A stretch of 64,000 nucleotides of DNA from Candidatus Azobacteroides sp. (GCA_021201815.1 JAJQEC010000083.1:5177-69176); one strand, 5' to 3'. Positions 53,461 through 53,916 are shown, numbered from the stretch's first letter. Numbers and translations are program-made. The notes: generated by a model from the letters alone, not told the origin.

Positions 53461-53916
53461 TTATTTTTCTTTTTTGACATGCTTCTTTTTCCTTACCCTT
53501 CTTACTATATAATATGCGCATAATAAGCCTAGTAGAATCATACCCGGATCCGGAAAAGAACCGAAATCAAAAGGTAGAGGGCGTTCATCCCCTCCTATGG
53601 GGTCAACCCAGCCTGTTGCCAGTCTTTCTTCATCTGCTATAATTTTCACTTTATCTTTATCCTCCTTTTTCCTATTAAAACTTTCTTCGTTTTCATTCCT
53701 GTCAGATCTTGAAAAAAACTGATAGGACCCATCTTCTTCTTTCGGAGATGGATCTGAGAATACATTTTCCTTATCTATAAATCCGGCAGGTCCGTCAAAT
53801 AGGTTATCACCGGGTAAAACACTTTTATATTTTTCTCCCGGACAGATGAAAAAGGGAAAGAAAAATAATAGTAAGAACGGAAGTATCCGTTTTCTTTTAT
53901 CGGTATTTTTTTTCAT
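53461..53916 (-). CDS. Small-protein family member S3 (signal peptide, acidic linker, GWVDPIGGD motif, PEP-CTERM-like tail)
   Basis: 151 aa with tail FPDPGMILLGLLCAYYIVRRVRKKK. Confidence 0.65.
   Translation of the reverse strand: MKKNTDKRKRILPFLLLFFFPFFICPGEKYKSVLPGDNLFDGPAGFIDKENVFSDPSPKEEDGSYQFFSRSDRNENEESFNRKKEDKDKVKIIADEERLATGWVDPIGGDERPLPFDFGSFPDPGMILLGLLCAYYIVRRVRKKKHVKKEK

Follow-up and report, generated by a model that had tools for sequence, protein, structure and literature searches.

Small genes behind cargo genes of the type IX secretion system

We analysed 64,000 nucleotides of Candidatus Azobacteroides sp. (GCA_021201815.1 JAJQEC010000083.1:5177-69176), hereafter called the window, with respect to a small gene at positions 53461-53916 (S3) and three further small genes of the same architecture (S1, S2 and S4). 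An original prediction, made from the sequence of the window, had described the C-terminal tails of the four encoded proteins as similar to a PEP-CTERM-type sorting signal that might be coupled to type IX secretion system (T9SS) cargo. The open reading frame (ORF) of S3 exists, the four tails quoted in that prediction agree letter by letter with the encoded proteins, all four genes lie on the minus strand, and S1-S4 are called as genes by public gene callers. As detailed below, the small genes are tied to neighbouring T9SS cargo genes, and their products are probably related to the PID-CTERM family of small proteins.

S1-S4 have a common layout: they begin with a hydrophobic signal sequence, the middle part is acidic and of low complexity, and a single C-terminal hydrophobic stretch of 14-16 residues is followed by a cluster of lysine and arginine residues 3-13 residues from the C-terminal end. 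An AlphaFold2 model of S3, calculated with the paralogs as alignment, contained helices only at residues 5-24, 83-100 (weak) and 124-149. The C-terminal helix reached block-mean values of the predicted local distance difference test (pLDDT) of 75-84 over most of its length, while residues 31-81 mostly stayed below 50, and the model has no folded ectodomain. The signal sequence of S3 was called from the sequence and from the helix at residues 5-24. With an N-terminal signal, a single C-terminal helix and a positively charged C-terminal side, S1-S4 have the characteristics of bitopic type I membrane proteins, the topology being assigned by the positive-inside rule. In physical terms, they are still best described by the plainer reading of the original prediction, which takes them as type-I inner-membrane proteins whose periplasmic part is acidic. 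Lipoprotein N-termini were considered as a general feature and rejected, as only some members have a cysteine close to where the signal ends, and this residue lies outside a lipobox context.

BLASTP linked S1 and S4 to S3 with E-values of 1e-9 and 2e-4, respectively, and S2 to S3 with only 0.08. A hidden Markov model (HMM) of the tail alone, searched against all ORFs of at least 35 amino acids (aa) in the window, retrieved exactly S1-S4, the next match having an E-value of 0.015. Judged by these sequence comparisons, S1-S4 are paralogs. Their positions, together with those of the adjacent cargo genes and of the individual elements of S3, are compiled in Table 1.

Table 1 Small genes, cargo genes and sequence elements of S3 in the window. 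For the small genes, the distance to the upstream gene is indicated; in each case this gene is located on the same strand.
Feature	Position	Strand	Description and evidence
S1	15404..15736	minus	paralog of 110 aa; gap of 47 bp behind the 1153-aa cargo gene (15784-19245)
S2	21142..21537	minus	131-aa paralog of the 'APPPNID..STPQK' subtype; last gene in conserved three-gene cassette; 18 bp behind the gene of the 297-aa protein (21556-22449), itself 38 bp after the FG-GAP gene
S3	53461..53916	minus	151 aa; second in tandem pair; 222 bp behind S4
S4	54139..54549	minus	paralog of 136 aa; gap of 57 bp behind the 1143-aa cargo gene (54607-58038)
S3 N-terminal signal sequence	53842..53916	minus	aa 1-25, basic n-region then ILPFLLLFFFPFFIC; sequence and AlphaFold2 helix 5-24
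S3 juxtamembrane motif W-V-D-P-I-G-G-D	53587..53610	minus	aa 103-110; alignments, hhalign
S3 L-P-F-D	53566..53577	minus	aa 114-117; aligns to PID-CTERM A-P-I-D/G signature (hhalign)
S3 P-D-P	53545..53553	minus	aa 122-124; inside the variable insert of 3-7 residues between PID-like motif and helix
S3 C-terminal transmembrane helix	53503..53544	minus	aa 125-138, GMILLGLLCAYYIV; sequence analysis and AlphaFold2
S3 basic tail	53464..53502	minus	aa 139-151, RRVRKKKHVKKEK, predicted cytoplasmic; sequence
1153-aa T9SS type A cargo	15784..19245	minus	IgGFc_binding domain, shared module, C-terminal domain; PF17517 E = 5e-47; TIGR04183 26.1 bits
297-aa T9SS type A protein	21556..22449	minus	middle gene of the cassette, with C-terminal domain; PF18962 29.1 bits; TIGR04183 28.7 bits
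1446-aa FG-GAP repeat protein	22488..26828	minus	first gene of the cassette, with the same C-terminal module; Pfam, module alignment A3
1143-aa secreted protein	54607..58038	minus	cargo of S4 and S3; IgGFc_binding N-domain, shared C-terminal module, end similar to a T9SS C-terminal domain; PF17517 E = 1.2e-35
Shared cargo module	15784-17640, 22488-24290, 54607-56430	minus	motifs 'D.NW.N..NW', 'GGEVA.P', 'NRWY.L..PL'

The three large cargo proteins differ in their N-terminal domains (IgGFc_binding versus FG-GAP) and have in common an otherwise unannotated C-terminal module of ~600 aa, which is located in front of the T9SS C-terminal domain (CTD). The 1143-aa and the 1153-aa proteins are 49% identical over their full length, and the latter passes TIGR04183, the model for the T9SS type A sorting domain (cutoff 23 bits). 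The small genes follow the large T9SS type A cargo genes with operon-like spacing and are probably co-transcribed with them. A scan of positions 52900-59700 for sigma-70 signals, which is uninformative for Bacteroidota, gave fewer promoter-like sites than shuffled controls and about as many terminator-like sites. An interpretation of cargo and small protein as a polymorphic toxin/immunity pair was rejected, since the C-terminal part of the cargo is conserved and the N-terminal part variable, which is the opposite of what is seen in toxin systems.

Relatives of the small genes and their link to PID-CTERM

Searches with profiles of the small proteins, built from the four window proteins (alignment A1) or from the extended family of 12 members described below (A4), returned the query proteins only from an index of 5.8 billion proteins. 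An exhaustive search of 1.84 billion representatives added two S2 orthologs only, P0005 and P0006, both 125 aa long and both from one metagenome-assembled genome (MAG) of Candidatus Azobacteroides sp. P0005 resides in the same cassette as S2 (FG-GAP protein, 297-aa protein, small gene), and the C-terminal 48 residues of S2 are ~60% identical to it, as counted from the sequences, including the extreme end KRKYTLA. The complete cassette recurs in four organisms, and the cargo proteins are 37-69% identical; the 1446-aa FG-GAP protein shows this range in comparison to its cassette orthologs in the loci L081, L094 and L100. The conservation of the cassette in four organisms therefore indicates that the small genes are real and under selection.

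Further relatives were found by following the cargo. When JGI metagenomes were scanned with the shared cargo module, 12 loci had sequence that continued past the cargo gene, and half of these (L084, L089, L090, L094, L097 and L100) contained, directly downstream, a small ORF of 107-127 aa with the same layout. A scan of GTDB that used the IgGFc_binding region at the N-terminus of the cargo yielded 78 loci and an S-like gene in none of them. The link of the small genes is to the C-terminal module of the cargo and not to its N-terminal domain.

S1-S4, P0005, P0006 and the six JGI proteins can be aligned as a single family of 12 members. In front of the helix, the alignment displays a conserved element that reads either 'W-x-D-P-I-G-G-D' or 'A-P-P-P..E.G..Q-K', followed by a hydrophobic-[P/S]-hydrophobic-[G/S/T/D/E] motif. 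The counterpart of the S3 element in S1 is WFDPIGGD, and relatives align 'APPP..E.G..QK' at this position. The subtype of the small protein varies with the type of the upstream gene; small genes of the APPP..PQK subtype are in every case preceded by the gene of a CTD-bearing protein of ~297 aa.

More distant cargo homologs, located in L104, L105 and L108, are followed by ORFs of 76-86 aa. Their products are composed of a signal peptide, the sequence 'PPHPNGG..GGGAP-[ILV]-[GD]-G-G', a 17-residue helix and the ending 'YG.[KR]K.Y'. A profile of these proteins retrieved at least 1232 proteins of ~64-112 aa, the named members of which all originate from MAGs of uncultured Bacteroidales or Bacteroidota and are annotated as hypothetical. 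Many of the retrieved proteins carry a precomputed match to PF28310, labelled PID_CTERM. The corresponding NCBIfam model NF046080 ('PID-CTERM protein-sorting domain', cutoff 26 bits) matched 103 of 115 aligned members of this family (alignment A6) at E ≤ 0.01, with P0110 reaching 37 bits. The intermediates from L089, L104 and L105 scored 11.8, 21.8 and 22.3 bits, respectively.

A profile comparison with hhalign connected the S family (A4) to the PID family (A6) with a probability of 91.8% (E = 7.5e-7, 19 columns). The score of this alignment was 40.9, compared to 16.7 for the reversed profile and at most 12.3 for thirty column-shuffled controls, and within it 'LPFD..GMILLGLLCAYYI' of S3 is paired with 'APID---GGLSIMLILGAAYGS'. 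The connection can also be divided into two steps, as the six window-type proteins align to the six JGI proteins with 94.8% (E = 4.8e-8, 36 columns) and the latter to A6 with 92.9% (E = 3.6e-7, 32 columns). Examples of bridging sequences are 'GGGAPISDGLFFL' in L105 and 'VPISDGIWIL' in L097. Based on the intermediates and on the conserved gene order, the window proteins probably represent a diverged and enlarged branch of the PID-CTERM small-protein family, which lies below the family's own threshold.

The genomic context of PID-CTERM genes is similar to that in the window. We sampled five PID-family loci, with long contigs as the sole selection criterion; in four of the five, the small gene is located 24-113 bp after the gene for a large secreted protein, and three of these four proteins pass TIGR04183. 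Canonical PID-CTERM genes follow proteins passing this model at distances of 22-113 bp, compared to gaps of 18-57 bp in the window. Upstream proteins that pass TIGR04183 are present in L115, L117 (two), L097, L090, L104 and L105 as well as in the window (two), and three further upstream proteins score just under the cutoff. The shared cargo module is detectable in cargos of L111 and L117 that precede PID-CTERM small genes. These two loci also contain tandem pairs of PID-CTERM genes and arrays of alternating cargo and small genes (L111 442-964, 6168-6694 and 9989-10506; L117 6336-6554 and 10001-10228), which the S4-S3 tandem in the window resembles. A systematic pairing of PID-CTERM small genes with T9SS cargo was not found described in the literature, the domain itself being already a database family.

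At positions 6498-8882 of L105, a complete PID-CTERM unit continues in frame and without a stop codon into the next cargo gene, with the cargo signal peptide located after the basic K/R stretch. This may be either a natural fusion of the two partners or an error of assembly or sequencing; a genuine fusion would fit the topology of the tail with the N-terminal side out and the C-terminal side in.

In summary of the resemblance to PID-CTERM, both groups combine a signal peptide with a stretch containing proline and glycine, a P-hydrophobic-D/G/S motif, a single short helix and a C-terminal K/R cluster, they occur as several paralogs per genome, sometimes in tandem, and their genes come immediately after T9SS type A cargo genes. 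The window proteins differ in their size of 110-151 aa, compared to 70-90 aa for PID-CTERM proteins, and contain an extra acidic low-complexity region. Furthermore, only one of the four keeps the signature proline (S, S, P, S), 3-7 residues are inserted between motif and helix, and the conserved ending 'AAYG.KKVY' is missing. We found no paper on PID-CTERM, NF046080 or PF28310, so that the 'sorting' role of the family is a database inference. To our knowledge, no cognate enzyme has been assigned to it.

Comparison with known sorting signals and accessory proteins

The original prediction was based on a tripartite arrangement in which a Pro-acidic-Pro motif is followed directly by a transmembrane helix and a basic cluster. 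While the tripartite arrangement as such was verified, the motif directly before the helix is true of S3 only. The juxtahelical residues are P122-D-P124 in S3, P-E-L in S1 and V-P-V in S4, and S2 has no proline there. A missing conservation of the P-[DE]-P element in orthologs had been named beforehand as an outcome that would refute the idea, and within 14 residues of the helix this element was found in one of the 12 family members, namely S3, and in none of the 115 PID-CTERM relatives. As it is present in S3 only, a P-[DE]-P signature is unsupported.

A comparison with curated models led to the same picture. NCBIfam, which includes models derived from TIGRFAM such as TIGR04183, gave no PEP-CTERM-type match for S1-S4 at E-values up to 10. 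The sole x-CTERM model that was hit was Loki-CTERM (NF033507), with 12.5 and 6.7 bits at a cutoff of 19.9 bits, and the x-CTERM models likewise stayed below their cutoffs for all 12 members of the S family. The check with PEP-CTERM and other x-CTERM models that had been proposed along with the original prediction was thus negative. The Loki-CTERM model covers the helix and basic cluster of the window proteins; since the match is below the cutoff, extends over model positions 8-27 only without covering the signature and refers to an archaeal family, it represents a generic combination of helix and basic residues. Pfam produced no match to S1-S4. GlyGly-CTERM was considered, as S1 and S3 contain 'IGGD', and was rejected because the two glycines are 12-20 residues away from the helix and the model does not match.

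The tail was also not found as a portable tag on unrelated proteins. In the window, the tail HMM matched only the four small paralogs, and across ~1 Mb of related loci all of its hits were small proteins encoded behind cargo genes. S1-S4 thus resemble substrates of the PEP-CTERM/exosortase (EpsH) system in their N-terminal signal peptide, in the often small low-complexity passenger and in the C-terminal succession of motif, helix and basic cluster; in contrast to these, a P-E-P-like triplet is present in S3 only, the model does not match, the tail does not occur on unrelated proteins and neither an exosortase gene nor an exopolysaccharide (EPS) locus is located near S1-S4. As far as can be judged from sequence, the tail of S1-S4 is not a PEP-CTERM signal. 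Of the suggested x-CTERM-like tail coupled to T9SS cargo, the connection to the cargo genes and, via intermediates, a link to PID-CTERM persist, and the assignment to PEP-CTERM by the P-[DE]-P element is lost.

No exosortase- or rhombosortase-like gene was found in the window, the multi-helix ORFs of which encode ATP synthase subunits, a CDP-alcohol phosphatidyltransferase, transporters and a P-type ATPase. In addition, ~200 kb of sequence flanking ~25 related small genes did not contain a gene for an exosortase, a rhomboid or a CPBP-type protein beside them. Multi-helix ORFs near the small genes were considered as candidate sorting enzymes and rejected after they had been identified as NqrB/D/E, MFS, ABC, P-type ATPase, NAAT and PssA proteins.

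It may be speculated that an exosortase of the XrtF type acts on such tails. The original prediction had pointed out that Bacteroidota encode XrtF without a defined cognate signal, which is correct: in Flavobacterium johnsoniae this orphan enzyme is required for surface colonisation and biofilm formation, and its targets are still unknown (PMC10936215, PMC12188702). The colonisation and biofilm defects of XrtF mutants overlap with those of T9SS mutants (PMC10936215; PMC12188702). The XrtF system is thus similar to the case described here in that it belongs to the same phylum and shares a phenotype with the T9SS (PMC10936215), whereas neither xrtF nor a partner gene was detected in any locus examined and the named members of the family studied here come from uncultured Bacteroidales and not from Flavobacteriales. 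A connection between XrtF and S1-S4 or their relatives was not seen in these loci, and a literature search for exosortases in Bacteroidales found nothing relevant.

Another possible analogy is provided by accessory genes of T9SS cargo. In F. johnsoniae, sprC, sprD and sprF are located next to sprB, are co-transcribed with this very large T9SS cargo and are needed specifically for it. The arrangement of small or medium-sized genes beside a very large cargo gene is similar to the one in the window. However, there is no sequence similarity to the window proteins, and the known accessory proteins are larger or located in the outer membrane, unlike bitopic inner-membrane proteins of 75-150 aa.

Proposed role, alternative readings and neighbouring features

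On balance, we lean towards the reading that S1-S4 are stable inner-membrane anchors and cargo-specific partners of a divergent PID-CTERM type. Following general sequence rules, the proteins would be exported by the Sec pathway and their signal peptide would be removed, after which they would be retained in the cytoplasmic membrane. The C-terminal helix would serve as the anchor, with the K/R cluster on the cytoplasmic side, and the disordered acidic stretch, which contains proline and glycine, would extend into the periplasm. Next to the membrane, it would expose W-x-D-P-I-G-G-D or A-P-P-P..G..Q-K and then the hydrophobic-[P/S]-hydrophobic-[D/E/G] motif. In the weakest step of this model, the small protein may hold, escort or regulate the neighbouring cargo before it is handed over to the T9SS. 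We take the tail as a stable anchor and not as a cleaved signal, because the PID-type signature is degenerate and displaced by 3-7 residues from the helix.

Several observations weigh against this reading. NF046080 does not match S1-S4 even at an E-value of 10, and a direct hhalign comparison of the four window proteins (A1) with A6 gave a probability of 64.9% (E = 6.1e-5, 17 columns) with the wrong regions paired. Because the direct match fails, homology of the window proteins to PID-CTERM is based on the intermediates and on synteny, and the hhalign matches span the transmembrane helix, the composition of which can inflate them. The proposed role as cargo partner is deduced from gene order and from the co-variation of subtypes only. 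An AlphaFold2 prediction of the shared cargo module from three sequences had a mean pLDDT of 35.9, so the fold was unusable. Finally, canonical members have a strongly conserved GGGAP-I-G/D-G-G directly before the helix, as would be expected of a processing site.

The last point is in line with an alternative that we regard as unlikely, in which the tail would be a genuine sorting signal of the PID-CTERM class. It would be cut at or near the P-hydrophobic-D/G motif by a membrane enzyme dedicated to this task, of the XrtF type or another one, which would pass the short ectodomain on to an acceptor (a lipid, a glycan or a protein). This process would be linked to the T9SS cargo encoded next to the small gene. 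The tripartite layout, the presence of several paralogs per genome and the profile-level connection to a domain that its curators named for protein sorting speak for it, as do the nearly invariant G-G-G-A-P-x-G abutting the short 17-residue helix of canonical members and the existence in Bacteroidota of XrtF, with unknown substrates and with mutant defects in common with T9SS mutants (PMC10936215; PMC12188702). The surveyed surroundings of the small genes, however, provide no candidate enzyme of the exosortase, rhomboid or CPBP type, and a single enzyme would have to recognise LSFE, LSLE, LPFD and FSFG at a variable distance from the helix. Moreover, conservation extends over the whole mature protein and includes residues behind the helix, which read YG.KKVY in PID-family proteins and KRKYTLA in those of the S2 type. 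All members found are small, the tail was never seen as a tag of unrelated proteins, and the evidence for XrtF that was found is limited to Flavobacteriales, while the named family members come from uncultured Bacteroidales or Bacteroidota. A more far-reaching version, in which an orphan sorting enzyme of Bacteroidota, XrtF-like or as yet unrecognised, has its missing substrates in the PID-CTERM-type proteins including S1-S4, with processing mechanistically coupled to the T9SS, appears distinctly improbable to us. If true, it would imply a second sorting step on top of the T9SS, for example a membrane-linked peptide, rich in proline and glycine or acidic, which escorts or tethers the adjacent cargo.

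It is also rather unlikely that S1-S4 are type-I membrane proteins restricted to their lineage and without relation to PID-CTERM, with a convergent or compositional similarity and a position next to the cargo that is coincidental or connected to an unrelated role. This would explain why no curated model matches them, why the two profile searches of large databases added only two S2 orthologs to the queries and why the direct comparison of A1 with A6 fails, and the aligned segments are indeed short (19-36 columns) and include the transmembrane helix. Yet two independent hhalign steps with 93-95% also cover motifs outside the membrane (APPP..G..QK and P-x-G/D), the real alignment clearly exceeds its reversed and shuffled controls, the bridging sequences of L105 and L097 are at hand, and the small genes take the same place, directly after a module-bearing T9SS cargo, in the window as well as in termite-gut-type loci and environmental Bacteroidales. 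That the small ORFs are chance open frames in AT-rich spacers behind cargo genes and not genes at all is highly improbable; S1, S3 and S4 have no orthologs beyond contigs of the same organism and are of low-complexity composition, but the four paralogs share one architecture, S2 has orthologs in the syntenic cassette of other organisms, family members recur behind cargo homologs in many metagenomes and public gene callers list them.

Bacteroidota display their adhesins and enzymes mainly by way of the T9SS, and accessory factors specific to its cargo are poorly known. The present analysis shows that PID-CTERM, a curated but unstudied family, is for the most part made up of very small membrane proteins whose genes come immediately after those of T9SS cargo, and a Bacteroidales lineage of the termite-gut type probably carries an enlarged and degenerate branch of it. 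This offers a concrete pairing of a small membrane protein with the adjacent cargo as well as a candidate substrate class for orphan enzymes such as XrtF. Even if the small proteins are plain anchors, they would form part of a new conserved T9SS-associated gene pair.

Each cargo operon in the window is preceded by an unusually long spacer of 0.9-1.9 kb that is poor in ORFs (19246-21141, 26829-27714 and 58039-59689). Two of these three spacers have short repeats of 26-31 nt with 88-90% identity in common, and remnants of cargo genes or small genes were found in none of the three. Two genes on the plus strand, at 45480-46445 and 59690-60655, encode paralogs of 321 aa with 27% identity (E = 2e-35). 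The latter gene is oriented divergently from the cargo operon of S4 and S3 across the 1.6-kb ORF-poor spacer, and its product shows weak, sub-threshold helix-turn-helix matches, which the protein of 45480-46445 does not. The protein encoded at 59690-60655 may regulate the S4/S3 cargo operon.

Just downstream of S3, the minus strand contains an ORF of 95 aa (53093-53380) with a very basic N-terminus (KKNGKF..RKRKKKSARKPAAK). It has no family match and is called as a gene on Logan contigs by public gene callers. Further downstream, one ORF at 51158-52597 (minus strand) joins the ~70 last residues of an AcrB-type pump of the resistance-nodulation-division (RND) family (ACR_tran 952-1020) to a TolC-like outer-membrane efflux protein. 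The arrangement resembles an efflux operon that has been truncated or fused, and it may be a case of gene decay in a host-associated genome.

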